Below, piece after piece: positions 4,157 through 54,990 of a stretch of 64,000 bases of DNA. The DNA is from Myxococcota bacterium. GTDB lineage: Bacteria; Myxococcota_A; UBA796; UBA2385. Below the pieces are notes generated by a model, which worked only from the letters and a program-made list of their open reading frames with translations, ran no database searches and had not been told where the DNA came from. Where the stretch lies: the NCBI GenBank assembly GCA_044344255.1, contig JBIJDH010000022.1, forward strand, positions 64,001-128,000, written 5' to 3'. Made by a program: the position numbers and the translations under genes. Every line of letters begins with the position of its first letter. Within the stretch, counting starts at the first letter, position 1.

Positions 4157-4280
4157 GGCGCTCGACGCGCGGCTGAGCGCCACCCCGCCCACCGCCCGCC
4201 CGCCCCGACCGCCGTCTCGCCGACACCACCCCGCCCCCGGGGTAGAGGGCCGGCTCCCCGCCGTGCAGGAAGGTCCGCCC

Positions 4281-5480: not shown

Positions 5481-5501
5481 GCCGGGCCGCCCCGCGCACC
5501 C

Positions 5502-6950: not shown

Positions 6951-6974
6951 GCGTTGTGCCTCAATGTGTATCTC

Positions 6975-10798: not shown

Positions 10799-10814
10799 TG
10801 GCACGCTCCTTGCT
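10799..10814 (+). promoter_or_regulatory. sigma54 (-24/-12) promoter
   Basis: TGGCACG-CTCC-TTGCT, an exact consensus match, 30 bp before the sigma-factor ATG. Confidence 0.85.
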
Positions 10815-30631: not shown

Positions 30632-32478
30632 GTGAAGAGCCGCAAGACGCCGGTCCCCTGGCGCCCGGCGCTGAGCTCGGCCGCTTCCGCGTGGTGGAGC
30701 TCGTGGGGGAAGGCGCGATGGCGCGGGTGTACCGGGTGCGCCACCGCGCCCTCAGCACCGAGCACGCCGTCAAGCTGCTGCGGAGCGCCGATCCGTCCCT
30801 CCGCCAGCGCCTCCTCCAGGAGGCCCGTGTCCAGGCGCGCATCCGCCACGACCACGTCGTCGCGGTCACCGACGTCCTCGAGCACGAGGGCCTGCCCGCC
30901 ATTGTCATGGAGTACGTGGCCGGCCGCTCGCTCGACCGCCGTCTCCACGAGGACGGCCCGCTGCCGCTCGACGTGGCCCGCCGTGTCTTCTCCGAGGTGC
31001 TCGACGCGGTGGGCGCCGCCCACGCGGCGGGCGTGCTCCACCGCGACCTCAAGCCGGGCAACGTCCTCCTCGCGGAAGAGGGCGAGCGCCTCATCGCGAA
31101 GGTCACCGACTTCGGCATCGCCAAGCTCGTCGCGGCCCCGGTCCGCGCCGACGAGACCCGCCACGGCGCCGCGATGGGCACCCCCGGCTACATGGCCCCC
31201 GAGCAGTGGGCCGACGCCCACTCTGTCGACGTCCGGGCCGACGTCTTCGGGCTCGGCGCGCTCTTCTACGAGTCGCTGACCGGCAAGACCCCCTTCGTCG
31301 GTCCGAGCCTCTTTACGGTGATGAAGCGCACCCTCGCGGGCGAACACGCGCCCCTCCGCGAGGGGCGCCCGGACTGCCCCCCCGCGCTGGCGGAGGCCAT
31401 CGAGCGGGCCCTTCGCCCCTCCCCCGAGGCGCGGTACCCCGACGTCGCCGCCTTCCGTCGGGCGCTCGAGGCCGCGTGGACCCAGCCCGACGTCCCCACC
31501 GAGGCCCCCGCCACGGCCCCCGAGCCCGTGGCCGAGACACCCCAGCCTGAGACCCTCCAGCCTGAGACACTCCAGCCCGAGGCGCTCGAGCCCGAGGCGC
31601 TCGAGCCCGAGCCACCCCAGCCCGAGCCTCCCGCTCGCGCGCGCCGGCCGCGCAGCCCGCTTTGGCTGGGCCTCTTTGTGCTGCCGATCGGGCTGTTGGT
31701 CTTCGCCGGCCTCTCCGCCGCCGGGGTCGCCGCCTGGTGGTGGAAGGGGGCGAGCCCGGTCCGCCGAGCCGCCGAGCCGATCGAGCCTCCCCCACCCCTC
31801 GCAGCGCCCGCGCCCCCAACCCCGGTGGTCTTCATCCCCGCCGGTGAGCTCCTCCAAGGTGAGGCCGGCCGCCCGGTGAGCGTCGCCGCCTTCCAGCTCG
31901 ACCGTTGGGAGCTGAGCGTGCTCCGTTACGACGAGTGCCACGCCGCCGGGGCCTGCAGCCGGCTCGCCGGCCCCGCTCCCACCTCCACCGAGCTGCCCGC
32001 TCGCGGCCTCTCTTGGGACCAGGCCTACACGGTCTGCGCCTACGAAGGCGGGCGACTGCCCACGGAGGCCGAGTGGGAGCGCGCGGCCGCCACCAGCCCG
32101 GAGCCCGGCCCGCGGCGAAGCTGGCCCTGGGGAGAGGCGCCCCCCGACTGTGAACACGCCCAGCACTCCGCCTGCAGCCCCCCGGGGCCCGTGGTCGTCG
32201 ACGCCCTGCCCCAGAGCGCCAGCGCCTGGGGGGTCGAGCAGCTCGCGGGCAACGTCTGGGAGTGGACCGCCAACCGGACCGCCAAGGGCCGCAGGGCCGG
32301 GCTCTTTCGCAAGGCCACAGAAGACCGCTACGCCCTCCGCGGCGGCGACTGGAGCTCGGACCCCGACGAGCTCAGCCCCACCGCCCGCCGATCCGCCGAC
32401 CACGACGATCACAGCTCCGCCTTCGGGGTGCGCTGCGCCTATGATGCCGGGGCCCAGCCCCGCCGGAGCCCCCCTTGA
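30628..32478 (+). CDS. membrane Ser/Thr kinase with C-terminal FGE-sulfatase domain
   Basis: HRDLKPGNV, DFGIAK, GTPGYMAPE, a TM helix, RLPTEAEWERAA, AGNVWEW, RGGDW, FGVRC; GTGA overlap with the previous gene. Confidence 0.92.
   Translation: MSEEPQDAGPLAPGAELGRFRVVELVGEGAMARVYRVRHRALSTEHAVKLLRSADPSLRQRLLQEARVQARIRHDHVVAVTDVLEHEGLPAIVMEYVAGRSLDRRLHEDGPLPLDVARRVFSEVLDAVGAAHAAGVLHRDLKPGNVLLAEEGERLIAKVTDFGIAKLVAAPVRADETRHGAAMGTPGYMAPEQWADAHSVDVRADVFGLGALFYESLTGKTPFVGPSLFTVMKRTLAGEHAPLREGRPDCPPALAEAIERALRPSPEARYPDVAAFRRALEAAWTQPDVPTEAPATAPEPVAETPQPETLQPETLQPEALEPEALEPEPPQPEPPARARRPRSPLWLGLFVLPIGLLVFAGLSAAGVAAWWWKGASPVRRAAEPIEPPPPLAAPAPPTPVVFIPAGELLQGEAGRPVSVAAFQLDRWELSVLRYDECHAAGACSRLAGPAPTSTELPARGLSWDQAYTVCAYEGGRLPTEAEWERAAATSPEPGPRRSWPWGEAPPDCEHAQHSACSPPGPVVVDALPQSASAWGVEQLAGNVWEWTANRTAKGRRAGLFRKATEDRYALRGGDWSSDPDELSPTARRSADHDDHSSAFGVRCAYDAGAQPRRSPP
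31534..31626 (+). repeat. 15-bp coding repeats (ETLQP/EALEP)
   Basis: GAGACCCTCCAGCCT-like units in the kinase linker. Confidence 0.75.
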
Positions 32479-39318: not shown

Positions 39319-40185
39319 TCAGCCGCCCCCGCCGCCTCCGGCACCCGCAGCGGGACCCTTGGCCTCCTTGGGCAACCAGAGCGTCGTGGCGAGGCCCGCG
39401 CGCCGGAGCGCCCGGAGGCACCACCACGTGGGGTCAAAGCCGCCGTGGAGGCCGTGGCAGGCGCTGCGCGGGTAACGGTGGTGGGCGTTGTGGTAGGCCT
39501 CGCCGAGCGTGAAGGGGGCGAGCCAGGGAACGTCCCGCGAGCCCTCGCCGGTGTCGTAGGGGGCCCGCCCGAAGGCCGCGCCGTGGCAGATCGAGTTCAC
39601 GGCCCAGCTCGAGTTGGTCAAGCAGAGGTGCAGGGCCCACAGCCAGAGCAGCCCCGCCGGCCCGGCGAGCCACCACAGGGCGCTGAGCTGCAGGGTGAAG
39701 AGGGAGACCGTCAGGAGGGGCCGCTCGAGGGCCATCAGGACACGATCCTCGCGGAGGTCCTTACAGAGCTCCAGCCAGACCGGCGGGTTCCGGCCTTGGA
39801 GGCGGCGGATGTCGTGGAGCAGCGTCAGTGCCTGCTGGCCGAAGCCCGAGGCCGCGAAGAGCAGGATCGGCAAGGCCCCCAGCCGCCGCCCGAAGGCCCG
39901 CTCGAGCAGCCAGCCGGCGTGCGCCTGGAGGAGCCCGCCGTTCACCGGGCTGTGCGGGTCTCCCGGGCCGTCGCTCTCGAGGTGGTGGTGCCGATGGAGC
40001 CCGATCCACAAGAGCGGCGGCCCCGCGTGCAGCGCCCCCAGCAGCGCGAGCGCCGCCCGCAGCGCCGGCCGCGCCGTGAAGGCCCGGTGCGTGAAGAGCC
40101 GGTGGTAGCCGAGGGTGTTGCCGAGCCCGAGCGCCACGAAGGCGGGCAGGAAGCTGGCCATCAGGAGCGCGGTCGTCGTCGTCAT
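39319..40185 (-). CDS. acyl-CoA (delta-9 type) fatty acid desaturase
   Basis: His boxes HRLFTH, HRHHH, HNAHH; DPHSP, VNSICH, GEAY. Confidence 0.92.
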   Translation of the reverse strand: MTTTTALLMASFLPAFVALGLGNTLGYHRLFTHRAFTARPALRAALALLGALHAGPPLLWIGLHRHHHLESDGPGDPHSPVNGGLLQAHAGWLLERAFGRRLGALPILLFAASGFGQQALTLLHDIRRLQGRNPPVWLELCKDLREDRVLMALERPLLTVSLFTLQLSALWWLAGPAGLLWLWALHLCLTNSSWAVNSICHGAAFGRAPYDTGEGSRDVPWLAPFTLGEAYHNAHHRYPRSACHGLHGGFDPTWWCLRALRRAGLATTLWLPKEAKGPAAGAGGGGGG

Positions 40186-40376
40186 GTGTCTCCGCCCCTC
40201 CCCGGCGGCCGGCCGGCCCCCGACCGAGCCTAAGCCGTCGGCGCCGCCCCGCCCCGTGCGCGCGCCGGCCCCTCGGATGAGCGGCCGGTGAGCGGCGCGG
40301 GGCCGATCGATGCGCGCGCGCATCCCTGTCCACGCTCGTCCCACAAACAAACGCCCGTTTTTCACGAGGGTGGCGG

Positions 40377-40392
40377 TGGCACGCACCTTGCT
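40377..40392 (+). promoter_or_regulatory. sigma54 (-24/-12) promoter of the halogenase operon
   Basis: TGGCACG-CACC-TTGCT exact consensus, about 93 bp before ATG 40485 (AGGAG RBS). Confidence 0.85.
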
Positions 40393-40484
40393 CACACCCT
40401 CTGCGACGGCGCACCGGCGCACTCTCCCTCTCCACTTTTCCCTCTCTCCATCACTCCCTCTGTCCATCCAGTCAGGAGCACACC

Positions 40485-42128
40485 ATGTCCGAGTCTATTC
40501 GAAATGTCCTCATCGTCGGCGGCGGGACCTCGGGATGGATGACGGCCGCCTATCTGCGCCGCGCCCTGCCGGCGGGCGTAGCGATCACGGTGGTCGAGTC
40601 GGACCGCGTGCCCACCATCGGGGTCGGCGAGGCCACCTTCAGCACCATCAAGCTCTTCTTCGACTACCTCGGCCTCGAGGAGCGCGAGTGGATGCCCGAG
40701 TGTAACGCCACCTACAAGATGGCCATCCGCTTCGCCGGCTGGAACGCCGAGGGCCGCGACTTCTATCACCCTTTCCAGCGGTACGAGACGGTGGACGGCT
40801 TCTCGATCGCCGACTGGTGGCTCCGCCTGCACAAGGACAAGCCCTTTGACCGCATGTGCTTCGCCATCCCCGAGCTCTGTGAGAGCAAGCGCTCGCCCCG
40901 CTTCCTCGACGGGGAGGTCTTCGACCCCACCGTGCAGCACGCCTTCCGCCGCGAGCACATCGAGCAGCAGAACATGCTCGGCGAGCACAAGATCCAGTAC
41001 CCCTATGCCTATCACTTCGACGCCGCCCTCCTCGCCCGCTTCCTGATGAAGCGCACCGTCGCCGACGGCGTCCGCCACATCCTCGACGACGTCACCCACG
41101 TCGGCCTCCGCCCGGACGGCGCCATCGGCCACATCGAGACGCAGAAGCACGGCCGCCTCGAGGCTGACCTCTACATCGACTGCACCGGCTTCGCCGGCCT
41201 GCTCATCAACAAGGCGCTCGGCACCCCCTTCATCTCGTTCAATGACACGCTCCTCTGCGATCGCGCCGTGGCGATGCAGGTCCCCGAGGACATCGAGGAC
41301 GAGGGCATTCGCCCCTACACCACCGCGACGGCCCTGTCCGCCGGCTGGGCCTGGAACATCCCGCTCTATGGCCGAAAGGGCACCGGCTACGTGTACTCGA
41401 GCCGCTTCATCAGCCCCGAGCAGGCCGAGGCCGAGCTGCGCAGCCACCTCGGCCCCGCCGCCGACGGCCTCAAGGCCAACCACATCCGCATGCGCATCGG
41501 CCGCAGCCAGGACGCTTGGGTGAAGAACTGTGTCGCCATCGGCCTCTCCAGCGGCTTCGTCGAGCCCCTGGAGTCGACCGGCATCTTCTTCATCCAGCAC
41601 GGCATCGAGCAGCTCGTCACCCACTTCCCCACCAAGGACTTCGACCCGAGCCTCATCCGCAGCTACAACCGCGGCGTCGGCGAGTGTATCGACGGCGTGC
41701 GCGACTTCCTCACGCTGCACTACTACGCCAGCACCCGCGCCGACACGCCCTTCTGGAAGGCCACGAAGGAGGTCACCATCCCCCCGGCGCTGGCCGAGCG
41801 CCTCGCCCTCTGGAAGCAGCGCCTCCCCGACGCCATGAGCATCAACCCCGCCTACCACGGCTTTGAGGCCTACTCCTACTCGGTGATGCTGCTCGGCCTC
41901 GGCTACGTGCCCGAGGGCCCCCAGCCCGCGGTCGCCGGCGCCGATCCCCGCCGGGCCGAGGCCGCCTTCGCCCGGCTGCGCGCCCGCACCCGCTCCCTCG
42001 TGGACAAGCTCCCCAGCCAGTTCGAGTACCTCAGCCACGTGAGCGAGTCCCGAGGCGAGCTCTCTCAGGGCGGGATGCGGCTCTATCGCCGCCCGGTCGG
42101 CGCCGAGCAGGCCGAGGCCCGGTCGTGA
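40485..42128 (+). CDS. flavin-dependent tryptophan halogenase (PyrH/SttH-like subgroup)
   Basis: GGGTSG, IGVGEATF, catalytic Lys in NATYKMAIRF, FYHPF, QYPYAYHFDA, WAWNIP, FVEPLESTG, YHGFEAYS. Confidence 0.95.
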   Translation: MSESIRNVLIVGGGTSGWMTAAYLRRALPAGVAITVVESDRVPTIGVGEATFSTIKLFFDYLGLEEREWMPECNATYKMAIRFAGWNAEGRDFYHPFQRYETVDGFSIADWWLRLHKDKPFDRMCFAIPELCESKRSPRFLDGEVFDPTVQHAFRREHIEQQNMLGEHKIQYPYAYHFDAALLARFLMKRTVADGVRHILDDVTHVGLRPDGAIGHIETQKHGRLEADLYIDCTGFAGLLINKALGTPFISFNDTLLCDRAVAMQVPEDIEDEGIRPYTTATALSAGWAWNIPLYGRKGTGYVYSSRFISPEQAEAELRSHLGPAADGLKANHIRMRIGRSQDAWVKNCVAIGLSSGFVEPLESTGIFFIQHGIEQLVTHFPTKDFDPSLIRSYNRGVGECIDGVRDFLTLHYYASTRADTPFWKATKEVTIPPALAERLALWKQRLPDAMSINPAYHGFEAYSYSVMLLGLGYVPEGPQPAVAGADPRRAEAAFARLRARTRSLVDKLPSQFEYLSHVSESRGELSQGGMRLYRRPVGAEQAEARS

Positions 42129-43312
42129 TCGCCGCCGACCGCGCGGTGGGCTCGGCCCGCGCTCGACAGATGCCGATGCCGCCCATCCGCGCCATCTTCG
42201 AGGCCGCCTCCCGCATGGAGGACATCGTGCGCCTCGAGGTGGGCGAGCCGGACTTCGGCCCCCCCGCCTGGCTCCGCGAGGCCCACATCGACGCGCTGCG
42301 GCGCGACAGCTCGCACTACACCTCCTTCAGCGGCCTCCTGGCCCTGCGCGAGGCCATCGCCCAGAAGCTGGCACGAGAGAACGGGATCACCCGGGACCCG
42401 GCGACCGAGATCCTCGTCACCTCGGGGGCCACCGGCGCGCTCTATCAGGCGCTCCAGGCCACCGTGGACCCGGGCGATGAGGTGCTCCTCCCGGCGCCGG
42501 GCTGGCCCCAGTACATGGCGTCTACGGCCCTCGCGGGCGGCGTGCCGGTCTTCTATCCGCTACACGCGGCCAATGGTTTCGTCCCGCGGGCCGAGGACAT
42601 TGCGCGCCTCATCACCCCGCGCACCCGCGTCCTCCTGCTCAATTCGCCCGGGAACCCGACCGGCGGCGTGATCGACGCCGCGACCCTCCAGGCGCTCGCC
42701 GCCCTCGTCCAGCAGCACAACCTCGTGCTCATCTCCGACGAGGTCTATGAGCACATCCGCTTCGACGGGGCGGCGCACCTGAGCCCGGCCGCGCTCCCGG
42801 GGATGGCCGAGCGCACCCTCACGCTCCACAGCGCGTCCAAGACCTTCGCGGTCACCGGCTGGCGCATCGGCTTCGCCGCCGGCCCCGCCGCCCACATCGG
42901 GCCGATGACGAAGATCGGCCTCTCCACCTGCACCCACCCGAGCACCCCCGCCCAGCACGCCTGTGTGGCGGCCTATCGACGGAGCGCGGAGGGGGACATC
43001 TCCCGGATGGTCGACACGCTCCGGCAGCGGCGGGACTTCCTCTGTGACAGCCTCTCCGCGATGCCCGGCCTCCGCTGCACCCGGCCCGCCGGCGCCTTCT
43101 ATGTGTTCGTGAACATCGAGGGCACCGGGCTCGACTCCGAGAGCCTCTCCTGGCACCTGCTCCGCAGCGCCGGCGTCTCGACCGTGCCCGGGGTCGGCTT
43201 TGGCCCCGGGGGAGAGGGCTTCATCCGCCTCTCCTTCGCCGCCTCGATGACCGAGCTCGAGCGGGGGGTCGAGCGGATCCACCGGGCGCTCTCCCAGCTC
43301 GCGCACGGCTGA
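42125..43312 (+). CDS. PLP-dependent class I/II aminotransferase
   Basis: GEPDF, VTSGATGAL, NSPGNPTG, SDEVYE, SASKTFAVTGWRIG (PLP Lys), FIRLSFA; GTGA overlap with the halogenase. Confidence 0.93.
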   Translation: MIAADRAVGSARARQMPMPPIRAIFEAASRMEDIVRLEVGEPDFGPPAWLREAHIDALRRDSSHYTSFSGLLALREAIAQKLARENGITRDPATEILVTSGATGALYQALQATVDPGDEVLLPAPGWPQYMASTALAGGVPVFYPLHAANGFVPRAEDIARLITPRTRVLLLNSPGNPTGGVIDAATLQALAALVQQHNLVLISDEVYEHIRFDGAAHLSPAALPGMAERTLTLHSASKTFAVTGWRIGFAAGPAAHIGPMTKIGLSTCTHPSTPAQHACVAAYRRSAEGDISRMVDTLRQRRDFLCDSLSAMPGLRCTRPAGAFYVFVNIEGTGLDSESLSWHLLRSAGVSTVPGVGFGPGGEGFIRLSFAASMTELERGVERIHRALSQLAHG

Positions 43313-43365
43313 GCGCCCTCTCGCCCCGCCCCTCTCGCCTCCTCCCCTCCGCCTCCGGAGCCGTC

Positions 43366-44502
43366 ATGTTCAGCCTCTCGCTCGACGCCACCCCCGCCTA
43401 CTCCCCTCGCTCCGCGGCCCCCTCCCTCTCCGCGCGCCTGCAAGCCGCCGCGCGGCTGGTCGACGCGCAGGACCCCGCCGCCGAGGCCGCGCTCGCGGCG
43501 CTCCGCTCCGACACGGAGGCCGCGCAGGGCCCCGAGGAGCGGCTCGCCCGCCTCTTCTTGGGTGCGCTCGAGGCGCGGCGGGCGGGCCTCGCCGCCGACC
43601 TCGGCAACCTCTACGGCGGCGGCGCCGGCCCCGCCGAGATGCTCGGCGCCTTCGAGGCCTTCGTCCAGGACACCCCGCTCGTCCGCTTTGCACACCACGC
43701 CGCCAACGCGGCCCACCTCGCGGCCATCGGCGACGCCGCCGCCGTCCGCATCATCGACGTCGGCCTCGGCTTCGGCAGCCAGTGGGAGCCCCTCCTCCAG
43801 GCCCTCGCCCGCCGCCCCGGCGGCCCGCCCGCGGTGCACCTCGTCGGCATCGACCTCCCCGCCCCCGGGGCAGACCCGGCCGCCGGGCTCACCGCGGTCG
43901 GGGCCCGCCTCGCTCGCCTCGCCGAGGGCTGCGGCGTACCCTTCACCTTCACCGCGCTCCCCGGGCGCGTCGAGGACCTGCCGCTGCCCGAAGTCGAGCC
44001 CGGCGAGCGCCTCACCATCAACGCCGCCTTCGCGCTCCACCACACCGGCCCCCTCGATCGCGACCCCACGCTGGCGCGCCTCGCGGCCACCGGCGCCCAC
44101 GCCATCGTGCTCTGCGAGCCCGAGGCGGACCACGACGCGCCGGCCTTCCCGGCCCGCCTCCGCGCCGCGCTCCGCCACTACGGGCTCGTCTTCGACGTCC
44201 TCGACCGCTGCCTCCGCGAGCGCCCGGCCGCCCGGGCCGTCATCGAGGGGCAGTTCTTCGGTCGCGAGATCCACAACGTCGTCGTCGGCGAAGGCGCCGC
44301 GCGGGTCGAACGCCACGCGCCCCACGCCGACTGGTCCCGCCGCCTCCGGGCCGCCGGCCTGTCGCCGGTCTCCCTCCGCACGAGGCCGGACAGCCAGCTC
44401 CGGCTCCCCGACGGCGTCGCGGTGGTGCCCCTGGGCTCGGCCACGGCCCTCACCGTGGATGGAGAGCCCCTGGTGGTGGTCTCGGCGTGGCAGCCGAACT
44501 GA
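43366..44502 (+). CDS. GRAS-domain protein (SCARECROW/DELLA-like, methyltransferase fold)
   Basis: PLVRFAHHAAN, VRIIDVGLGFGSQW..LLQALARRPGGPP (VHIID), EPEADH..F..RL..ALRHY..VFD (PFYRE), GREIHNVV.GEG..RVERH, C-terminal VSAW. Confidence 0.93.
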   Translation: MFSLSLDATPAYSPRSAAPSLSARLQAAARLVDAQDPAAEAALAALRSDTEAAQGPEERLARLFLGALEARRAGLAADLGNLYGGGAGPAEMLGAFEAFVQDTPLVRFAHHAANAAHLAAIGDAAAVRIIDVGLGFGSQWEPLLQALARRPGGPPAVHLVGIDLPAPGADPAAGLTAVGARLARLAEGCGVPFTFTALPGRVEDLPLPEVEPGERLTINAAFALHHTGPLDRDPTLARLAATGAHAIVLCEPEADHDAPAFPARLRAALRHYGLVFDVLDRCLRERPAARAVIEGQFFGREIHNVVVGEGAARVERHAPHADWSRRLRAAGLSPVSLRTRPDSQLRLPDGVAVVPLGSATALTVDGEPLVVVSAWQPN

Positions 44503-44565: not shown

Positions 44566-45969
44566 TCAGCCCCGCCGACGCAGCCCGAGGGCCAGCCCAA
44601 AGAGGCCGAGGCCGACGAGGCCGGTGACCGGAGCGCGAGGCGCGGAGGCACAGCCGCAGCCGGCCTTCTCCGCGGGCTCCGCGGCGCCGCCGCCATCCTC
44701 GGCGGCGCCGTCGGCCCCGTCGGCCCCGTCGGCGCCGCCCGCCCCGTCGGCGCCGTCCGCGCCGTCCGCGCCGTCGCTGCCGCCGCTGTCACCCTCCCCG
44801 CTGGTGTCACAGAGCTCGATACACTCGCGATTGGCGGTGGTGTCGTCGGCGAAGCTCAGCACCTTGTCTTCGAGGATGTTCGAGGTGTAGAAGATGAGGT
44901 CAGCGGAGGCCTGCTCGGGGGTGTAGCGCATCCGCATGCGGGTCATGAAGTGACTGTCAAAGGCCCCGACGAAGCCCAGGTCCTGGAGGTCCTGCTCGGT
45001 CGGATAGACGCCGGTGCAGGGGTTGCAGGAGGAGATGCCTCCGCTGAACTCGGTGGTCCAGCCCGCGGTGCCGGTGGCGGCCCAGGCGCTCGTGAAGCGC
45101 TCCTCGTAGAAGGCCTTGAAGTCGTCGGTGGGGGCGCCCCAGATGCAGCGGTCGGGGACGTCGAACTCTGTGTAGTTCGAGATGCCCACCTTCCCCGCCG
45201 CGCCGTCTACGATGGTGTAGATCACCATGTCCTGGCTGCCCGGGGAATTGAGCGTGGCGAGGCGAATGGGGACGGAGAAGACCTCGCTCTCATAGGAGAC
45301 CTGGAGCGGCGACAGGGACGAGCCGTCGGCCATCGCTGCGGTGTCGGCCACCTGGGCCGCGAAGAAGAAGCTGCCGGCCTCGATGTACTCGGCGAGGATA
45401 GGGTCCGCGCCGGGGGCGAGCTGGAAGCCGTGCCCGTCGAGCCACTCCTGGAGCGCGCCCGACTCCTCGGCCGAGAGGATGAAGACCCGGTACTCCCCCA
45501 CGAGGTACTCCGCGACCACGTCCACCTCGCCGTCGTCTCCGCCGCCGCCCCCGGCGCCGTCTCCGCCCTCGGCGTTGGAGGGGATGCAGCCGGCGTCCGA
45601 GACGTGGCGGGGCCCCGTGTAGCCGTCGAGGCGGGCGAAGACCTCGGCGTCGAGGGTCTTGACCTCCTCCTCGGAGGGCACCTCGGGGACCGGGAGGAGG
45701 AGCGCGAAGTCTTGCGGCTCCCCGCTCGGGTTGACCGACACCGAGAAGGTGGTGCGGTTGCCCTGTCGCACCAGGGCGAGCCGCGCGACGTCAAAGCTGA
45801 GCTGGGAGGGGGTGCCGGTGACCAGCGTGGGGCAGGCCCAGGCCGAGCCGCCCACCGCCGAGAGGGCGAGGAGGAGGGACAGGGTGAGGCGCGCGGGGCG
45901 GGGCAGGGCGGTGGGCACGGGGGCTCCGGGGCGAGGGCGAGGCCCCGAGGATAGCCGGGCGTCGCTCAA
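44566..45969 (-). CDS. DUF2330-like secreted protein with GAD linker and MYXO-CTERM-like tail
   Basis: GEPQDFALLLPVP, LQEWL..HGF, YIEAGSFFFA, VPIRL; C-terminal GCGC...LGLRRRG. Confidence 0.82.
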   Translation of the reverse strand: MSDARLSSGPRPRPGAPVPTALPRPARLTLSLLLALSAVGGSAWACPTLVTGTPSQLSFDVARLALVRQGNRTTFSVSVNPSGEPQDFALLLPVPEVPSEEEVKTLDAEVFARLDGYTGPRHVSDAGCIPSNAEGGDGAGGGGGDDGEVDVVAEYLVGEYRVFILSAEESGALQEWLDGHGFQLAPGADPILAEYIEAGSFFFAAQVADTAAMADGSSLSPLQVSYESEVFSVPIRLATLNSPGSQDMVIYTIVDGAAGKVGISNYTEFDVPDRCIWGAPTDDFKAFYEERFTSAWAATGTAGWTTEFSGGISSCNPCTGVYPTEQDLQDLGFVGAFDSHFMTRMRMRYTPEQASADLIFYTSNILEDKVLSFADDTTANRECIELCDTSGEGDSGGSDGADGADGADGAGGADGADGADGAAEDGGGAAEPAEKAGCGCASAPRAPVTGLVGLGLFGLALGLRRRG

Positions 45970-47039
45970 CCCGCCTGCGCACCCGCGTCGAGGGCCCAGC
46001 GGACAGGCGCCTCGTGCCGCCAGGGCCGGAGCTCGGCGCCCGCGCCGAAGGGCAGGCTCGGCGGCGGCGTCCAGTCGCGCCGCGTAAGGGTGACCGCCCC
46101 CTCGTTACGCGGCAGCCGATAGAAGTCGGGCCCGTTCTCGGAGGCGAAGGCCTCGAGGCGGTCGAGCGCCCCCACCGCGTCGAAGGCCTCGGCATAGAGC
46201 TCGATGCCGGCGTGGGCGGTGTAGCAGCCCGCGCAGCCGCAGATGGCCTCCTTGCGGGAGACCGCGTGCGGCGCGCTGTCGGTGCCGAGGAAGTAGCGGG
46301 AGGGCCCGCGGGTGGCGGCCTCCAGAAGGGCCTGGCGGTCGGTCTCCCGCTTGAGCACGGGGAGGCAATAATAGTGGGGCCGGACCCCGCCCACCAGCAG
46401 GTCATTCCGGTTCGCCAGCAGGTGGTGGGCGGTGAGGGTCGCCCCGACCGCGGGCCCGGCGGCGTCGACGAAGGCCACCGCGGCCGCCGTCGTGAGGTGC
46501 TCGACCACCACGCGCAGGTCGGGCAGGCGGCCCAGCAGGGGCCCAAGCACCCGCTCGAGGAAGACCCGCTCCCGGTCAAAGATGTCGATGTCGGGGTCGG
46601 TCACCTCGCCGTGTACGAGCAGCGGCAGCCCGACCCGGGCCATGTGCGCGAGCACAGGCTCGACCTGGGACAGGGACCGCACCCCGGCGGACGAATTGGT
46701 GGTGGCGCCCGCGGGATAGAGCTTCACGCCGACGATGCCCGCGGCGACCGCCTCGTCGATGTCTCCCTCTGTGGTCTCTTCGGTGAGGTAGAGGGTGAGC
46801 AGGGGCTGGAAGGGCCGCTCGGGACAGGCGGCCTGTCGGGCCCGCTCGATGCGCTCGCCATAGGCCAGGGCGTCGGCCGCCCGCCGGAGGGGCGGCAGCG
46901 TGTTCGGCATCACCACCGCCCGCACGAAGCGGCGCGCCGTGTCGCCGATGACGGCCTGGAGGGCCTCGCCGTCACGGAGGTGGAGGTGCCAGTCATCGGG
47001 GGCGCGGAGGGTGAGCCGGTCAACGGTGGGGGGCGTCAT
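45966..47039 (-). CDS. pyrC: dihydroorotase (homodimeric type)
   Basis: DDWHLHLRDG, VMPN, KLYPAGATTNS, LLVHGEVT, EHLTT, YCLPVLKR, FLGTDSAPH, CGCAG. Confidence 0.96.
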   Translation of the reverse strand: MTPPTVDRLTLRAPDDWHLHLRDGEALQAVIGDTARRFVRAVVMPNTLPPLRRAADALAYGERIERARQAACPERPFQPLLTLYLTEETTEGDIDEAVAAGIVGVKLYPAGATTNSSAGVRSLSQVEPVLAHMARVGLPLLVHGEVTDPDIDIFDRERVFLERVLGPLLGRLPDLRVVVEHLTTAAAVAFVDAAGPAVGATLTAHHLLANRNDLLVGGVRPHYYCLPVLKRETDRQALLEAATRGPSRYFLGTDSAPHAVSRKEAICGCAGCYTAHAGIELYAEAFDAVGALDRLEAFASENGPDFYRLPRNEGAVTLTRRDWTPPPSLPFGAGAELRPWRHEAPVRWALDAGAQAG

Positions 47040-48769
47040 GTCAGTCCACGGGGGTCACGGGCCTGGACCCAGGAGAGGAGCGCGAGCCCGCGGGCCCGGG
47101 GGAGCGCCGCGGCCTGGGCGCGAGAGAGGGCGGCCCGATCGACGACCGCGAGCAGCGCGGGCTCCGCGGCCAGCGCGGGGAGCGTCGCGATGAGGGCGGG
47201 CAGGGCGAGCTCGTCCGGCAGGCGGGAGAGGGAGCGGATAAAGCGCTGCAGTGCGGACTCGGCGAGGCCACCGGCGCTGGCGGCGGCGAGCCCGGCGGCC
47301 AGTCGACCGACGAGAGACGCCGCCGAGGCGACCTCTCCGCGGTGTCGGGCCTCGTCGAGGGCCCCCTCGGCCTCCTGATAGAGCCGAATGGCCGCGGCGG
47401 GCGCCCCACCCTCCGCCGTCGCCCCGGCGAGGTGGACGAGGAGCTCCGCCCGGAGCAGCGGGAGGCCCACGGTGCGGGAGAGATCGAGGGCCTCCACGAG
47501 CGCGCCAGCCGAGACGAGGGCGCGGGTGAAGAGCCGCTCGACGGGCTCTGGCCCCTGTCCGGGCAGATCGACCACCAGCGGGGCGGGCCACTCGCCGAGG
47601 GTCCGGTGCATTGCGCGGGTCGCCAGCCCGAGGTCGCCCACCGCCGCCCGGAGCAGCGCCCCATAGACCAGGGGCTCGGCCTCGGGCGGGCCCGCGGCGG
47701 CGCTCGCCTCCAGGGCCGCCGCCGCGCGCCGCGCCCGCTCGGCCTGGCCGGTGATGATCTCGAGCTGGCCGAGCGCGTAGCACCAGGCCGGCGGCACGAC
47801 ATCCTGGCGGCGGAGCGCGTCCCTCAGCGCCGGCGCGAAGGGGCGACGCCGAGTCGCCAGGGCATAGAGCGGCCGCCAGGCATAGGGCGACTGGGGCTCT
47901 GGGGGGAGAGGGTCTCTCGCCACCCGCCGGACGAACGAGTCAAAAGCAGCGACGGCGCCCTCTTCGTCTCCATAAACGAGCCGAGCCTCGAGCAGCCGAC
48001 ACAGCGCATCCGCCCCGGCGAGGCCTCCAGCGGCCGGCGCGTCCACCGCGGCCTCCCAGAGCGCGAGCGCCGCTGTGAGCGCCCCGTCGCCGAGCAGCAG
48101 CTCACCCACCTCGGCCGCGACGAGCAGGCCAGGGAGGCCCTGGGAGAGGCCGCTCCGGGCGAGGTCCAAGGCGCGGTCGGGCCGGCCCCCTGCGAGGGCC
48201 ACCGCGGCGAGGCCCCGGCGGGCGACGCGCGCGTCGTCGGGATCGGCGATCCGATCGGCGGCCGCGAGGGCGAGGGACCAGGGCGCTCCGAGGCCCGGAT
48301 AGGCGACGTCCATCGGGCAGGCCGCGCAGAGGGCCGCCAGGGCCTGGGCCCGGGGCAGCCGCCCCTCGCCGATGTGCGGGAGCAAGACGAGCGCCTCCTC
48401 CACCGCGCCGAGCCCCGCGAGGCCCGCGAAGAGCCGCGCGCGGGCAATGTCGGGGCCCATCCAGCCCGGGCGCGCCCGCCACCGCTTGGGGGCGCGGAGC
48501 CCGTCTCGGGCCAGGAGCAGGTGGCGGAGGGCCTCCCCCGGCGCCTCCCCGGTCCGAGCGGCCGTGTCGGCCATCAGGGCGTGCAGCCAGGCGCACCCAA
48601 GCGGGTCGTCGAGGTCGAGCAGCACCTCGCGCGCGAGGTCCACCGCCCCGGAGCCGAGGGCCGCGGCGCCCACCGCCTCGAGCAGCTCGGCGCGGAGCTC
48701 GGGCGGCTCGACGGTCCAGGCGAGGTCAAGGGCCTCTGTCAGCAGGCTACCGAGGGTCGACTCTGGCAT
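47036..48769 (-). CDS. hypothetical helical-repeat protein
   Basis: Long Ala/Leu-rich alpha-repeat ORF coupled to pyrC by a 4-bp overlap; start estimated. Confidence 0.65.
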   Translation of the reverse strand: MPESTLGSLLTEALDLAWTVEPPELRAELLEAVGAAALGSGAVDLAREVLLDLDDPLGCAWLHALMADTAARTGEAPGEALRHLLLARDGLRAPKRWRARPGWMGPDIARARLFAGLAGLGAVEEALVLLPHIGEGRLPRAQALAALCAACPMDVAYPGLGAPWSLALAAADRIADPDDARVARRGLAAVALAGGRPDRALDLARSGLSQGLPGLLVAAEVGELLLGDGALTAALALWEAAVDAPAAGGLAGADALCRLLEARLVYGDEEGAVAAFDSFVRRVARDPLPPEPQSPYAWRPLYALATRRRPFAPALRDALRRQDVVPPAWCYALGQLEIITGQAERARRAAAALEASAAAGPPEAEPLVYGALLRAAVGDLGLATRAMHRTLGEWPAPLVVDLPGQGPEPVERLFTRALVSAGALVEALDLSRTVGLPLLRAELLVHLAGATAEGGAPAAAIRLYQEAEGALDEARHRGEVASAASLVGRLAAGLAAASAGGLAESALQRFIRSLSRLPDELALPALIATLPALAAEPALLAVVDRAALSRAQAAALPRARGLALLSWVQARDPRGLT

Positions 48770-48849
48770 GGTCCACTCCCCTTCGGCGGCGCGCCAGCGA
48801 AACAGCCTATCTCCCCATGCCGCCCGCGGGCCACCGACCATCGCGCCCC

Positions 48850-49290
48850 TCAGCCGAGCATGCGGGCCCGGGCCGCCGCCGCGGCGGGGGCGGCCTCCGC
48901 CTCGGGCGCCTCGGGGCCCGCCTGCCGGGGCCGAAGGGGCGGGGCGCCCTCGAGGGCGGCGAGCTCTACATGGGCTCGCACCAGGGCGCTCACCTCCCGC
49001 TCGACCCCCTGGGCCTGCTCGTCCACCCGCTCGAGGCCGGCGCCGGACTCGCCGACGAGGTCGAGCTGGGCGACGTCCAAGGCCAGCGACTTGACCGCCT
49101 GCCGGAAGCCCTCGATCCGCGCCGACACCCGGTCATGGGCCGCGACGAGCGATCGCCGCTCCTGGATGCGCCGCTCGACGGCCTGGGCGTTCTGGGATCA
49201 GAGGGCCTTCGCCGCCGCGTCCTGCCCTACGGCCTGCGCAGCCCGGGCCTGCCGGGTGAGGTAGCCCCGGAGGAGGGCGCCGCCCCGCCG
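48850..49290 (-). pseudogene. coiled-coil protein remnant with in-frame TGA
   Basis: Frame of ORF 48850..49128 continues upstream as ..LLRGYLTRQARAAQAVGQDAAAKAL*SQNAQAVERRIQERR..; TGA at 49200-49198. Confidence 0.55.
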
Positions 49291-49356: not shown

Positions 49357-50029
49357 AGAGGAAGCCCCGCTCACAGAGCGCATCGTATCGTGTGCGGTCG
49401 AAACGATAGAGGCGCGCCGCCCGGTGGGCCACGCCCTGCTCCACGGCGCCCGTCTCGACCAGGAAATTCATGGCCTGCAGCTTCCGCCGGAAATTGCGCT
49501 TGTCGAGCGGGCGGCCGAGGATGATCTCGTAGAGCCGCTGCAGGCGGGAGAGCGGGAAGGCCTCGGGGAGGAGCTCGAAGCCCACGGGCTGGTAGCGCAC
49601 CTTGGCCTGGAGGCGCTGGAGCGCCACCGAGAGGATACGGGCGTGGTCGAAGGCGAGGGCCGGCAACCCATCGACCGGGAACCAGGCGGCGCCGCTGGCG
49701 TCGGAGGCGGCGCGCGGCACATAGGCCTCGGGGCGCACGAGACCCCAATAGGCGGTGGAGATGACCCGCCCCCGCGGGTCCCGACCGGGGTCTCCGAAGG
49801 TGTAGAGCTGCTCGAGGAAGTGGAGCCCCACGCCCGCCTCCTCGCGGAGCTCGCGCTCCACGGCGGCCTCGAGGGACTCGCCGGAGAGCACGAAGCCGCC
49901 CGGGAGGGCCCAGCTCCCGAGGAAGGGGGGGATAGCCCGCTCGATGAGCAGCACGAGCAGGCGCTCCGGCTCCGCCCCGAAGACGACCGCGTCGACCGCG
50001 AAGAGCGGAGCCTCGAAGCCCTCCTTCAC
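49346..50029 (-). CDS. nrtR: Nudix-related transcriptional regulator NrtR
   Basis: AVDAVVFG, WALPGGFV..GESL..A..REL.EE, LEQLYTFG...RDPRGR, LAFDH, wHTH LDKRNFRRK..RAARLY; GTGA overlap with nadE. Confidence 0.92.
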   Translation of the reverse strand: MKEGFEAPLFAVDAVVFGAEPERLLVLLIERAIPPFLGSWALPGGFVLSGESLEAAVERELREEAGVGLHFLEQLYTFGDPGRDPRGRVISTAYWGLVRPEAYVPRAASDASGAAWFPVDGLPALAFDHARILSVALQRLQAKVRYQPVGFELLPEAFPLSRLQRLYEIILGRPLDKRNFRRKLQAMNFLVETGAVEQGVAHRAARLYRFDRTRYDALCERGFLFDL

Positions 50030-52008
50030 TCCGCCTCCGACCGCGCCCGGAGCTGCCCGAGCTCCCGCGCGAAGCCCCCCGACAGGATGGGGAAGCGGCA
50101 CCAGGAGCGGGGGTCGAGGTTCTCGTCGTCGAGGTGAAAGGAGGGGGCGTATCGCTCGCGCTTCCACTGGTTCGTGCACCAGAGGCGGAAGAAGCGCTCT
50201 ACCCACATCGCCAGCATCGCCCGCGTGAACTGGGGGAACCAGACACAGAGCAGCCGATGGACCTCCGAGGGCTCGAGCTTGTCGCGGATGGCCGCCCGCT
50301 CGATGGCGTCGAGCACGGGATAGGGCATCAGGTCGTCCTCGTCGGTCTGGTGCCGCTCGGGCGGCCGGAGCTCGGCGGTGGGCTGGAGCGCGTTGACCAC
50401 ATCGAGGCCGGCGACCGGGCCGAGCCCCTCGGGCCCCACCGCGCCCACCCAGCGCAGCCACTCGCGGAGGTAAGCCTTGTCGATGCCGGCGATGGGCGAC
50501 AGGCCGCCGCAGGTGTCTCCGTCCATCGTCGCGTAGCCGACCGCGGCCTCGGAGCGGTTGCTGGTGGCGAGGAGGAGCTTGCCCTCGATGTTGGCGAGCA
50601 TCCAGACGCCCGGCGCGCGCACACGCGCCTGGATGTTCTGGAGCGCGATGTCGTCGGTGCGCCAGTCGAGCGGGCGGCCGAGGGTGTCGGCAACCATCCC
50701 GGTGTATCCGTCTACCAGAGCGTCGATCTTCCAGAGGTGGAAGGTGGCGCCGAGCCCCAGGGCCACGGTGCGGGCGCTGTGGAGGGTCTCCTCGGAGCTG
50801 TTCTCGGTGGCCTGATAGACCGTCGTGAGGAGGCGCGCCGTCCAGTCGGCGGGATCGGCGGGCAGGTCTTTGATGTGCCGCAGGCGATGGGCCACCCGCT
50901 CGGCGCCGATCTCCCCCACCGCGAAGCGCAGCGAGAGGGCGCAGAGCGTGGCCACCGCCGCCGAGTCGGCGCCGCCCGAGAGGGAGACCATCCAGCCCCG
51001 CGCGCGCGACTTGACGAGGTAATCAAAGAGGCCGAGGGCGACGGCGCGTGTGAAGCTCTCGAAGCGCGCCGAGGGGCCGGTGTCCCAGGACTGGCGCACC
51101 GGGACGGGGAGGGCGGGCTCGACGTCGGGCCACACGAAGGGCAGCCGCACCACCTCGTCGCCCGGGTCGCCGGGATCGCTCCGCAGGCTGGCGGTGCGGC
51201 CGCGGCTGACGCGGTTGGCCTCCACGTCCACCACCGCGGTGGTCAGATAGACCTCGTCGAAGCCGAGCGAGGGCCCGTTAGCGAGGAGCTTGCCGCCGCT
51301 GCCGATGAGGCCCGCCCCGTCGTAGAGGATGCGGCCGGCCTCGTTGCCGACGAGGTTCGCATAGAGGTAGGTGACCCCGAAGGCGCGCGAGCCATCGACC
51401 ACGAAGCGCTCGCGCACCGCTCGCTTGCCGAAGGCGAAGTGGCTGCCGCTCGGGTTGAGGAGGAAGTCAATCCCGTGCTGGGTGAGGGCGGCCCCGGGCC
51501 GCAGCGCCACCCAGGCCTCCTCACAGATCTCAAAGCCGACCCGCACGCCGCCGAGGTCAAAGAAGAGGTCGCCCATCGGGACGCCGGCCCCCTCCCCCAC
51601 CCGCGTGCGCACCCCGAGCGGCCAGGGCTTGAACCAGCGCGGCTCGTAGTGGACGCCGTCGCCGGCGAGGTGCCGCTTGGCCACGAGGCCGGCGACCCGC
51701 CCATCGACCAGCAGGGCGGCCGAGTCATAGACGGCGGCGTTCACCACCACCGGCAGGCCCACACAGACGATCATCCCACCCGTGGCGCTCGCGATCTCGC
51801 CCAGGATCTCCCAGGCCGTCCGGCTGACGAAGGGGCTGTGAAAGGCGTCCTCACAGCCGTAGCCGGTGATACACAGCTCGGGCAGCACGAGCAGGCTCAC
51901 CCCGGCGGCGCGGGCCTCGCCGATGGCGCGGAGGATGCGGGAGAGGTTGCCCGCCCAGTCGAGGGGGGTCTGATTGACGGCGGCGACGCCGACCCGAATG
52001 AGCTTCAC
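50026..52008 (-). CDS. nadE: glutamine-dependent NAD+ synthetase
   Basis: CN-hydrolase domain (LPELCITGY, YEPRWF, EICEE); SLSGGADS, QNIQARVR, TSNRSEAAVGYAT.DGD, PTAEL. Confidence 0.96.
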   Translation of the reverse strand: MKLIRVGVAAVNQTPLDWAGNLSRILRAIGEARAAGVSLLVLPELCITGYGCEDAFHSPFVSRTAWEILGEIASATGGMIVCVGLPVVVNAAVYDSAALLVDGRVAGLVAKRHLAGDGVHYEPRWFKPWPLGVRTRVGEGAGVPMGDLFFDLGGVRVGFEICEEAWVALRPGAALTQHGIDFLLNPSGSHFAFGKRAVRERFVVDGSRAFGVTYLYANLVGNEAGRILYDGAGLIGSGGKLLANGPSLGFDEVYLTTAVVDVEANRVSRGRTASLRSDPGDPGDEVVRLPFVWPDVEPALPVPVRQSWDTGPSARFESFTRAVALGLFDYLVKSRARGWMVSLSGGADSAAVATLCALSLRFAVGEIGAERVAHRLRHIKDLPADPADWTARLLTTVYQATENSSEETLHSARTVALGLGATFHLWKIDALVDGYTGMVADTLGRPLDWRTDDIALQNIQARVRAPGVWMLANIEGKLLLATSNRSEAAVGYATMDGDTCGGLSPIAGIDKAYLREWLRWVGAVGPEGLGPVAGLDVVNALQPTAELRPPERHQTDEDDLMPYPVLDAIERAAIRDKLEPSEVHRLLCVWFPQFTRAMLAMWVERFFRLWCTNQWKRERYAPSFHLDDENLDPRSWCRFPILSGGFARELGQLRARSEAE

Positions 52009-53474
52009 TGGGCACCCCCGCGGCGGAGGAGGTCATGGGTGGTGTCGGAGAGCTGGCCCTCCACGCCGACGAGATAGGGCTCGGGCGCCTCGAGGCGGCG
52101 ATGCCGGTCCGGGAGGGACTGGAGCGCCTTCGCGGCGTGATCGCGGACGGCCGACAAGCTCGGCGCCGCCGCGACCCGCTCGCCGCCGCGCAGCGCGGGG
52201 ACGAGGAGGTCTCGCTCTTCATCGGCCATGGGCAGCGTGAGGGCCTCGCCGCCGCGGCTTCGCCAGCTCGGGCACTCGGGAATTCCGGTGGGGACGTCGT
52301 AGAGGAGGTCTCCCACGAGCTGCCCGCGGAGCGCGTACCGGCGAACCTGATGCTCGCCGGGGAGGGAGATCTTGGCAGCCTCCTCGGAGCGTTTCACCCG
52401 CTGCTGCCAGGCGCCTCCCGCTCGCCGCACCGCCGAGAGCTTGTAGACCCCGCCGAGGGCCGACTGGTCTCCGCCGGTGACGAGGCGGGTGCCCACCCCG
52501 TAGATGCCGATGGGGGCGCCCTCCTTGCGGAGCGCGGCGATACGGTGCTCATCGAGGTCATTGCTGGCGACGACCTTGGCGTTCGGGAAGCCTGCAGCGT
52601 CGAGCCTCTCGCGGGCGGCGCGGGCGAGGGCGCCGAGGTCTCCCGAGTCGAGTCGCACGCCGAGCATCTCGTGGCCCTCGGCGCGGAGCTTTCGGCCCAC
52701 CTCGATCGCCCGGTCAACCCCGGTGAGGGTGTCATAGGTGTCGACCAGGAAGATGCAGTTGTTCGGCAGGGCCTCGGCGTACCGCTCGAAGGCCTCGACC
52801 TCGCTGTCGTGGGCCAGCACCCAGGAGTGGGCGTGGGTGCCTCGCACCGGGATCCCGTACAGGCGCCCGGCCAGCACGTTGCTCGTCGAGGCGCAGCCGC
52901 CCACATAGGCCGCCCGGCTCGCCGACAGACCGCCGTCGATGCCCTGGGCCCGCCGCAGGCCGAACTCGAGCACCGGCGCCCCCTCGGCGGCCAGCGCCAC
53001 CCGGGCGGCCTTGGTGGCCACGAGCGTCTGGAAATTGAGGATGGTGAGCAGGGCCGTCTCGACGAGCTGGGCCTCGATCAGCGAGCCTTTTACGCGCAGG
53101 AGGGGCTCGTGCGGAAAGACGAGGTCGCCCTCGGGGATGGCGTCGACGTCGCAGGTGAAGCGCAGGCCCCACAGGTAGTCGAGGAAGCCGGCCTCGAAGA
53201 GGGGCCGCCCGTCTGCGCCGACGAGGCCGCGGAGGTACTCGATGTCTGCCCGCTCGAAGCGGAGCTCGGTGAGGAAGTCGAGCGCGGGGCCGAGGCCGGC
53301 TGCCACCGCGAAGCTCCCGCCGAACGGAGCCTTACGGAAGTAGAGGTGAAAGATCGCCTCGTCGGACTGACGGCCGGCGCGCCAGTAGCCATAGGCCATG
53401 GTGAGCTGGTAGAGGTCTGTCAGGAGGCCGAGCGAGGGCCGGTAGAGCGCGGCTTGAGGGGAGTCGTGAGACAT
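52005..53474 (-). CDS. pncB: nicotinate phosphoribosyltransferase
   Basis: LLTDLYQLTM, EFGLRRAQG, TSNVLAG, GTHAHSW, LVDTYD, VRLDSGDL, ASNDLDE, GGVYKL. Confidence 0.96.
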   Translation of the reverse strand: MSHDSPQAALYRPSLGLLTDLYQLTMAYGYWRAGRQSDEAIFHLYFRKAPFGGSFAVAAGLGPALDFLTELRFERADIEYLRGLVGADGRPLFEAGFLDYLWGLRFTCDVDAIPEGDLVFPHEPLLRVKGSLIEAQLVETALLTILNFQTLVATKAARVALAAEGAPVLEFGLRRAQGIDGGLSASRAAYVGGCASTSNVLAGRLYGIPVRGTHAHSWVLAHDSEVEAFERYAEALPNNCIFLVDTYDTLTGVDRAIEVGRKLRAEGHEMLGVRLDSGDLGALARAARERLDAAGFPNAKVVASNDLDEHRIAALRKEGAPIGIYGVGTRLVTGGDQSALGGVYKLSAVRRAGGAWQQRVKRSEEAAKISLPGEHQVRRYALRGQLVGDLLYDVPTGIPECPSWRSRGGEALTLPMADEERDLLVPALRGGERVAAAPSLSAVRDHAAKALQSLPDRHRRLEAPEPYLVGVEGQLSDTTHDLLRRGGAQ

Positions 53475-53510
53475 GGTCGCTCCGGGCGCCGGGGGCACCG
53501 GCGGGTGATC

Positions 53511-53577: not shown

Positions 53578-53623
53578 TTGACACTTCTTCCAGCGCGAGA
53601 CATATTGTCATCACCCGTGACAA
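53578..53623 (+). promoter_or_regulatory. sigma70-type promoter with downstream palindrome
   Basis: TTGACA(53578)-N17-CATATT(53601); inverted repeat TTGTCA-N7-TGACAA at 53605-53623. Confidence 0.6.
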
Positions 53624-53631
53624 GGTGGCCC

Positions 53632-54990
<1,359 letters not shown>

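Follow-up and report, generated by a model that had tools for sequence, protein, structure and literature searches.

A sigma-54-preceded halogenase-aminotransferase-GRAS cassette in Myxococcota that may make a halogenated, methylated indole

Within a 64,000-nucleotide (nt) stretch of the genome of a Myxococcota bacterium (assembly GCA_044344255.1, contig JBIJDH010000022.1, positions 64,001 to 128,000 of the forward strand; the whole of this stretch is hereafter "the window"), three genes on the same strand encode a tryptophan (Trp) halogenase, a class I aminotransferase and a GRAS-domain protein (Table 1). We analysed this locus, where the G+C content is ~70-78%, as a candidate cassette for a halogenated, methylated indole metabolite. 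The GTG start of the aminotransferase gene overlaps the TGA stop of the halogenase gene as GTGA, an overlap through which the aminotransferase is predicted to be translationally coupled to the halogenase, and the ATG of the GRAS gene lies 53 nt past the aminotransferase stop, 6 nt behind a GGAG. No terminator-like site was found between the three genes. A preliminary description of this DNA had reported the identities of the genes, their common orientation, the GTGA overlap, the 53-nt gap and the two flanking genes, all of which are present. It had also remarked that no genes of the nonribosomal peptide synthetase (NRPS), polyketide synthase (PKS), prnBCD or rebOD type lie nearby, and our domain scan agrees: among the open reading frames (ORFs) scanned between 20558 and 62961 (9 + 21 ORFs, several of which matched no Pfam family), none of these and no other Trp-tailoring domains were found.

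Table 1. Positions, in window coordinates, of the three genes, their putative control elements and the flanking genes.
Feature	Position	Strand	Remarks
FA_desaturase gene, upstream flank	39319-40467 (as listed ORF)	-	divergent; Pfam
Perfect 16-bp palindrome GATGCGCGCGCGCATC	40309-40324	.	candidate upstream activating sequence (UAS) of an enhancer-binding protein
Sigma-54 (RpoN) -24/-12 promoter TGGCACGCACCTTGCT (= TGGCACgcaccTTGCT)	40377-40392	+	exact TGGCAC-N5-TTGCW; 93 nt before the halogenase ATG
Trp halogenase gene	40485-42128	+	547 aa; PF04820
Class I aminotransferase gene	42125-43312	+	395 aa; PF00155
GRAS-domain gene	43366-44502	+	378 aa; PF03514
DUF2330 gene, downstream flank	44566-45969	convergent	Pfam

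The halogenase matches its Pfam family with E = 1.2e-146 (489.7 bits against a cut-off of 21), and its closest solved relatives are SttH (5hy5, 1.1e-189, 634.8 bits) and PyrH (2wet, 4e-188, 629.7 bits), over residues 5-519. It also matches the Trp 5-halogenase 8fov, the tryptophan halogenase 6nsd and the thermophilic tryptophan halogenase 5lv9, while PrnA, RebH and Thal score far lower against it. The preliminary description had spoken of PyrH/PrnA-type enzymes; the window halogenase belongs with the PyrH/SttH clade and not with that of PrnA. The halogenase motifs are kept, GxGxxG as GGGTSG (12-17) and WxWxIP as WAWNIP (288-293), as are the catalytic residues K78 (K79 in SttH) and E363 and the Trp-binding stretches H95-P96-F97, QYPYAYHF (171-178) and PAYHGFEAYS (455-464). 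In SttH, K79 and E363 are catalytic, H96, P97, F98 and Y463 contact the indole, and QFPYAYHF and PYYHGxxxYS are shared active-site stretches (PMC5071727).

The only active-site difference reported there between PyrH and SttH is F451-E452-T453 in the former versus L460-P461-P462 in the latter (PMC5071727). The window halogenase has F460-E461-A462, and F-E-A is found in 8 of 8 sequences of its close clade. We predict with moderate confidence that the enzyme acts on free L-Trp with a PyrH-like preference for C5; this confidence is only moderate because swapping all three residues in SttH moved just 32% of Trp chlorination to C5 (PMC5071727). PyrH (a Trp 5-halogenase, pyrroindomycin) and SttH (a Trp 6-halogenase) thus belong to the same family and clade as the window halogenase, in which all of the named catalytic and Trp-binding residues are kept. 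The window enzyme differs from PyrH in having Ala in place of Thr as the third residue of the triplet, and from both enzymes in a C-terminal extension of ~28 residues and in sitting in a three-gene cassette without other pathway genes.

The aminotransferase matches its family with E = 6.1e-70 (236.6 bits against a cut-off of 19.7), and the residues SASK with K239, DEVY with D205, and R368 are present; K239 would be the lysine that binds pyridoxal phosphate (PLP) and R368 the carboxylate-binding arginine. Its best solved relatives are the aromatic aminotransferase of Pyrococcus horikoshii (1dju, 1.8e-90; 1gd9) and, in addition, aspartate/prephenate aminotransferases of subgroup Ib. Having an aromatic aminotransferase as the best solved relative is no more than suggestive of an aromatic substrate. 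No other aminotransferase encoded in the genome exceeds 35% identity to the cassette enzyme, which is, by its sequence, a distinct paralogue and a dedicated extra copy.

Bacterial GRAS proteins were reportedly described by Zhang, Iyer and Aravind in 2012. The one encoded here matches PF03514 with E = 8.6e-64 (216.2 bits against a cut-off of 27) over profile positions 4-374 of 374, and aligns in sequence to the GRAS domains of the plant proteins DELLA (1.1e-38), SCL7, SCR and SHR. A structure model built on 32 bacterial sequences (predicted local distance difference test score, pLDDT, 92.1) matches plant GRAS structures (SHR/SCR, SCL3, SCL7, RGA) with Z of 38.7-40.0 over 344-362 aligned residues at 26-32% identity. 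The next structural matches are class I S-adenosylmethionine (SAM) methyltransferases at Z 14-18 (BelI 17.8, CmoA 17.7, SgvM 15.6, EgtD 15.5 and many more), for which Foldseek gives E of ~1e-7. The Rossmann methyltransferase fold that the preliminary description had ascribed to the GRAS domain is borne out by these structural matches and by the SAM motifs that are kept. An earlier in-silico study likewise concluded that the GRAS domain resembles bacterial Rossmann-fold SAM methyltransferases (as quoted in bioRxiv 10.1101/398883).

In the model, motif I (D131-V-G133-L-G135-F-G137) comes after strand 1, D163 ends the strand 156-163, and E203 follows the strand 193-199. The glycines G133, G135 and G137, together with D163 and E203, presumably occupy the usual SAM-contact sites of the class I methyltransferase fold. 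All 32 bacterial GRAS sequences carry G133, G135, G137, Q139 and E203 and have D or E at position 163, and 30 of the 32 keep N219. At the corresponding SAM positions the alignment to DELLA has K for G135, G for D163 and A for E203. Plant GRAS proteins (DELLA, SCR, SHR, SCL) therefore share the domain and the fold of the window protein, whereas in those aligned here the SAM site is incomplete and N-terminal regulatory regions are present. For the window protein, we predict a SAM-dependent small-molecule methyltransferase with putative catalytic activity.

To place the locus in context we compared it with 65 GRAS loci from species-representative genomes and 10 from metagenomes, several of the latter being short. 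A halogenase and an aminotransferase lie beside the GRAS gene in only 1 of the 65 genome loci, L001, which comes from a Myxococcota metagenome-assembled genome (MAG; genome G401). Its halogenase, aminotransferase and GRAS protein are 87%, 84% and 77% identical to those of the window, and similarity at the DNA level is limited to L001 positions 3190-7126, equivalent to window positions 40475-44491, a stretch that opens 10 nt ahead of the halogenase start and runs to the end of the GRAS gene. The flanks of the two loci differ, with DUF7660 upstream and a kinase-WD40 gene downstream in L001 but the desaturase and DUF2330 genes in the window; in G401, the genes that flank the window's triad have their best homologues on other contigs, at 58% and 57% identity. 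Core-gene identity between the two genomes is 75% for RpoB and 61% for GyrB. Because the three accessory enzymes equal or exceed RpoB in identity while residing in different neighbourhoods, the triad seems, on these comparisons, to have moved horizontally as a whole block between distantly related Myxococcota. That the triad descended vertically and was rearranged locally was also considered and is the less likely account, as the cassette proteins equal or exceed RpoB identity. The recurrence of triad and promoter in a different neighbourhood, more conserved than RpoB or GyrB, also favours the proposal of the preliminary description that the three genes work together.

Each of the three proteins has a well-delimited set of close relatives: 7 clusters at 80-87% identity for the halogenase, followed by 67%; 8 clusters at 77-85% for the aminotransferase, followed by 58%; and 9 clusters at 67-75% for the GRAS protein, followed by 48%. 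Beyond these close clades, the nearest relatives fall into different groups for the three proteins, which gives the cassette the look of an assembly from separate sources. A longest contig of 10453 is common to P0151, P0033 and P0005, one member of each close clade, and a longest contig of 4539 is common to P0154 and P0035, one halogenase and one aminotransferase; from these matching contig sizes alone, a third triad and a partial fourth probably exist. Four positions set the GRAS proteins of the triad clade apart from all of the other 23 bacterial GRAS sequences, namely T227 (V, L, I or M in the others), A244 (P in 21/23), C282 (L in 20/23) and A318 (E, D or Q in the others), which are candidates for adaptation to a substrate.

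The neighbourhood search that the preliminary description put forward as a check did not reveal a general association of GRAS with halogenase genes, the pair occurring in a single one of the 65 genome loci and in none of the 10 from metagenomes; with L001 as the sole match, we reject such a general link. A general link between GRAS and aminotransferase genes is rejected as well, as matches to the cassette aminotransferase at E <= 1e-10 occur only in L001, L003 (27%) and L046 (29%). Viewed from the halogenase side, homologues at E <= 1e-50 are present in 8 of 400 other genomes of the phylum and in 0 of 7 in the same family, and neither an aminotransferase nor a GRAS gene was found within ~8 kb of the three best halogenases of the phylum (57%, 42% and 43% by tblastn).

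A separate observation concerns L002, from a MAG labelled Enterobacterales. Its GRAS protein is 49% identical to that of the window, an unrelated PF00155 gene lies 2.8 kb downstream, the contig has 64% G+C, and cytochrome c, GH9 and TadE-like genes are found beside it. This composition and these neighbours look odd for Enterobacterales, and the label may be wrong.

The preliminary description had placed the three genes behind a consensus sigma-54 promoter, and this is upheld by the exact match (Table 1), by an rpoN gene in the genome (424.8 bits against a cut-off of 277) and by retention of the motif in L001, where TGGCACgacccTTGCT stands at the same place inside an otherwise diverged, poorly alignable intergenic region. 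Exact sigma-54 consensus sites occur 2 times in the 64-kb window against 0.01 expected, with at least 2 in 0 of 100 shuffles, and strict sites number 51 in the 8.18 Mb of the genome. No sigma-70-like site was found between 39000 and 46200. The strict motif was found at no GRAS locus other than L001 (all loci examined except L066-L075).

Upstream of the promoter lies the perfect palindrome of Table 1, whose counterpart in L001 is an 18-bp perfect palindrome, GGTTGTGCGCGCACAACC, at L001 positions 3061-3078. The distance from the centre of the palindrome to the GG of the -24 element downstream is 61.5 nt in both loci. Where the two palindromes differ, they do so at symmetric positions and preserve the symmetry, as a site bound by a dimer would be expected to do. 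Shuffling the intergenic region 2000 times gave a palindrome of at least 16 bp in 31 cases. The palindrome core, TGYGCGCGCRCA, has 4 copies in the 8.18-Mb genome, and this copy is the only one at most 200 nt upstream of a strict sigma-54 site. We regard the palindrome as a candidate binding site of a dedicated enhancer-binding activator.

Several further features bear on sigma-54 and GRAS genes more widely. Sigma-54 control of bacterial GRAS genes in general was considered and not found, the strict motif being limited to L001 among the loci examined for it. In Sorangium cellulosum So ce56 (L006), a gene for an FHA-domain sigma-54 activator (3236-4891) lies ~1 kb upstream of a GRAS gene on the same strand (5848-7152); between the two, no sigma-54 motif with fewer than 2 mismatches was found, and none properly placed. 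The GRAS gene has the same position in 18 Sorangium loci (L004-L021). The second exact sigma-54 site of the window, TGGCACGCTCCTTGCT, is at 10799-10814 (+), where several overlapping ORFs are listed. The nearest candidate activator in the window is an NtrC-type response regulator (Response_reg, Sigma54_activat, HTH_8) encoded downstream at 53578-54990 (+), and no link between it and the cassette was seen.

Taking these elements together, we propose, at about even odds (a probability of roughly 0.5), that the locus is a self-contained, horizontally mobile three-gene cassette that makes a halogenated, methylated indole metabolite under sigma-54 control. In this scheme, a signal would activate an enhancer-binding protein, probably at the palindrome, and RNA polymerase with RpoN would transcribe the operon. 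The halogenase would chlorinate or brominate free L-Trp, most likely at C5, to give 5-halo-L-tryptophan, which the dedicated aminotransferase would convert to 5-halo-indole-3-pyruvate; the GRAS enzyme would then move a methyl group from SAM onto the halo-indolepyruvate or a compound closely derived from it. What results would be a small indole metabolite, halogenated and methylated, that is produced solely while the activator is switched on. The order of steps, from Trp through halo-Trp and halo-indolepyruvate to methylation, is what family membership alone would lead one to expect, and both the choice of halide and the site of methylation are conjectural, with nothing in the data distinguishing C-, O- and N-methylation. 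Taken singly, the proposition that the GRAS protein works as a SAM methyltransferase on a halogenated indole-3-pyruvate or Trp derivative supplied by its operon partners is a tentative one, which we think somewhat likelier to fail than to hold. The auxin-like product that the preliminary description had in mind is not favoured, as the cassette comes with no decarboxylase, aldehyde dehydrogenase or YUC-type gene.

A number of points weigh against the proposed cassette pathway. The three-gene unit includes no flavin reductase, transporter or activator gene, and the nearest sigma-54 activator is 9 kb off. The substrate of the aminotransferase is not assignable by homology, because the protein falls below every NCBIfam equivalog cut-off in the best 25 of its 69 matches (best 324.9 bits against 620). 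The GRAS protein matches no methyltransferase Pfam family even at E 10, and its structural matches to methyltransferases, tied at Z 14-18, single out no type of reaction. The residues invariant in the 32 GRAS sequences may, moreover, serve a family-wide function unrelated to indoles, because the other GRAS loci are without a halogenase (0 of 64 further genome loci, 0 of 10 metagenome loci) and, in 14 sampled loci, the genes around the GRAS gene show no relation from one locus to the next. As regards the triad itself, part of the high identity between the two genomes could stem from strong constraint instead of transfer, its distribution is narrow, and only three instances are known, one of them by matching contig sizes alone.

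The alternative that survives best, though we consider it unlikely, specifies the chemistry further: the GRAS enzyme would C-methylate halo-indolepyruvate at its beta carbon, and the same aminotransferase would re-aminate the product to beta-methyl-5-halo-tryptophan. A single aminotransferase paired with a methyltransferase is a known layout for beta-methyl amino acids, and MarG and StnQ1, of the beta-methyl-Trp routes to maremycin and streptonigrin, follow this logic. In indolmycin biosynthesis, the aminotransferase Ind8 and the C-methyltransferase Ind1 act on indolepyruvate (PMC5925218). SgvM, which has been solved with alpha-ketoleucine, is among the structural matches of our model (Z 15.6; Foldseek rank 47), and the invariant residues H225, H226, E251, H256, R264 and H271 could hold a metal and a keto acid. 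However, dozens of O-, N- and S-methyltransferases share the score range of SgvM in what amounts to a tie, and outside the GRAS family the highest-ranking structure is BelI (Z 17.8), whose enzyme group consists, according to the title of the relevant paper, of SAM- and metal-dependent O-methyltransferases (PMC11408123). The DELLA alignment further indicates that the invariant residues are mostly common to non-catalytic plant GRAS proteins, in which case they may be structural. By analogy, methylation of the carboxyl oxygen would resemble the BelI enzyme group, and N-methylation would resemble EgtD.

It is less probable still that the halogenase and aminotransferase alone make up the pathway and that the GRAS protein is a co-transcribed non-member, with a ligand-binding or regulatory role or a methylation target common to bacterial GRAS proteins. 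In favour of this, bacterial GRAS genes mostly occur singly amid genes unrelated to them, a pattern suggestive of a role that does not depend on context; the GRAS domains of plants work through protein binding; and between L001 and the window the GRAS protein is less well conserved (77%) than the halogenase (87%) or the aminotransferase (84%). Yet the GRAS gene is kept in all triad instances seen, inside the shared block, its SAM-binding motifs are intact, and the triad-clade substitutions T227, A244, C282 and A318 fit a changed substrate. Lastly, we think it improbable, and the weakest of these alternatives, that the GRAS protein methylates halo-Trp itself (at N-alpha, the indole N or the carboxyl) while the aminotransferase supplies or recycles the amino acid or removes the product: EgtD, an amino-acid N-alpha-methyltransferase for which a structure with tryptophan also exists, appears in the structural comparison (Foldseek ranks 15, 17 and 35; Z 15.5) and aminotransferases are reversible, but gene order and translational coupling would tie the aminotransferase to the halogenase, and a dedicated aminotransferase paralogue inside a mobile unit is hard to explain as a duplicate housekeeping activity.

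For the preferred reading, in which a halogenated indolepyruvate is the likely substrate of the GRAS enzyme, the constituent steps have separate precedents. Both thienodolin biosynthesis, with a Trp 6-halogenase and the aminotransferase ThnJ, and the formation of 4-chloroindole-3-acetic acid (4-Cl-IAA) in pea, with TAR aminotransferases acting on 4-Cl-Trp, resemble the cassette in joining a halogenated Trp ring to transamination towards indolepyruvate; thienodolin starts from 6-chloro-Trp. ThnJ deaminates Trp (PMC5925218), PsTAR1 and PsTAR2 act with 4-Cl-Trp, and chloro-Trp enters the indolepyruvate route in pea (PMC7177246). Thienodolin biosynthesis continues with sulfur insertion and amide formation and the pea route leads on to auxin, whereas the only further enzyme of the cassette is of the GRAS family. 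The Ind1/Ind8 (indolmycin) and SgvM systems resemble the cassette in their pairing of an aminotransferase with a SAM methyltransferase, which in the known systems has a keto-acid substrate. These systems are without a halogenase, and their counterpart in the cassette is a GRAS protein (PF03514) rather than a member of any methyltransferase Pfam family. In the literature searched, whose coverage left out most subscription journals, we found no description of a cassette combining halogenase, aminotransferase and GRAS genes, and no substrate, reaction or pathway context for a bacterial GRAS protein. The combinations of halogenase with aminotransferase and of aminotransferase with methyltransferase are thus known separately, and the three-way combination appears new.

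The question of what the GRAS domain did ancestrally stands behind gibberellin and developmental signalling in plants. If our reading is true, the cassette would provide the first substrate and pathway for any enzyme of the GRAS family, and would show that a domain later turned by plants into regulators of hormone pathways can work on an indole resembling an auxin precursor. It would then also constitute a mobile, sigma-54-gated module for a halogenated methyl-indole signal or antimetabolite. As a unit of three genes with a single promoter and a first intermediate that can be predicted, the cassette makes an enzymatic function of a GRAS protein directly testable. It would add a minimal route for tailoring halo-Trp, free of NRPS, PKS or other cluster genes, that appears to travel between distantly related Myxococcota with its own sigma-54 control region.

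The upstream boundary of the locus depends on the start of the divergent desaturase gene. As listed, the desaturase ORF overlaps both the sigma-54 promoter and the palindrome, and its first 94 codons, on a reading of the translation, resemble translated non-coding DNA. The start is probably Met95, which would give a gene at 39319-40185 and leave a divergent intergenic region of 299 nt. The homologue of this desaturase in G401 was read through one TGA.

Other features of the window lie further from the cassette. Two overlapping long ORFs on opposite strands, at 47036-48841 (-) and 47342-49264 (+), have 77-79% G+C, and neither matches a Pfam family. At 50026-53498 (-) lies a pair of genes for NAD salvage, a glutamine-dependent NAD synthetase (CN_hydrolase and NAD_synthase domains) adjoining a nicotinate phosphoribosyltransferase; with the NadE of the window as query, no match was found in genome G401, and NadE hence gives no identity baseline for the two genomes. 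Two adjacent genes at 27716-32478 (+) encode Ser/Thr protein kinases, one fused to an AAA_16 ATPase and the other to an FGE-sulfatase domain.

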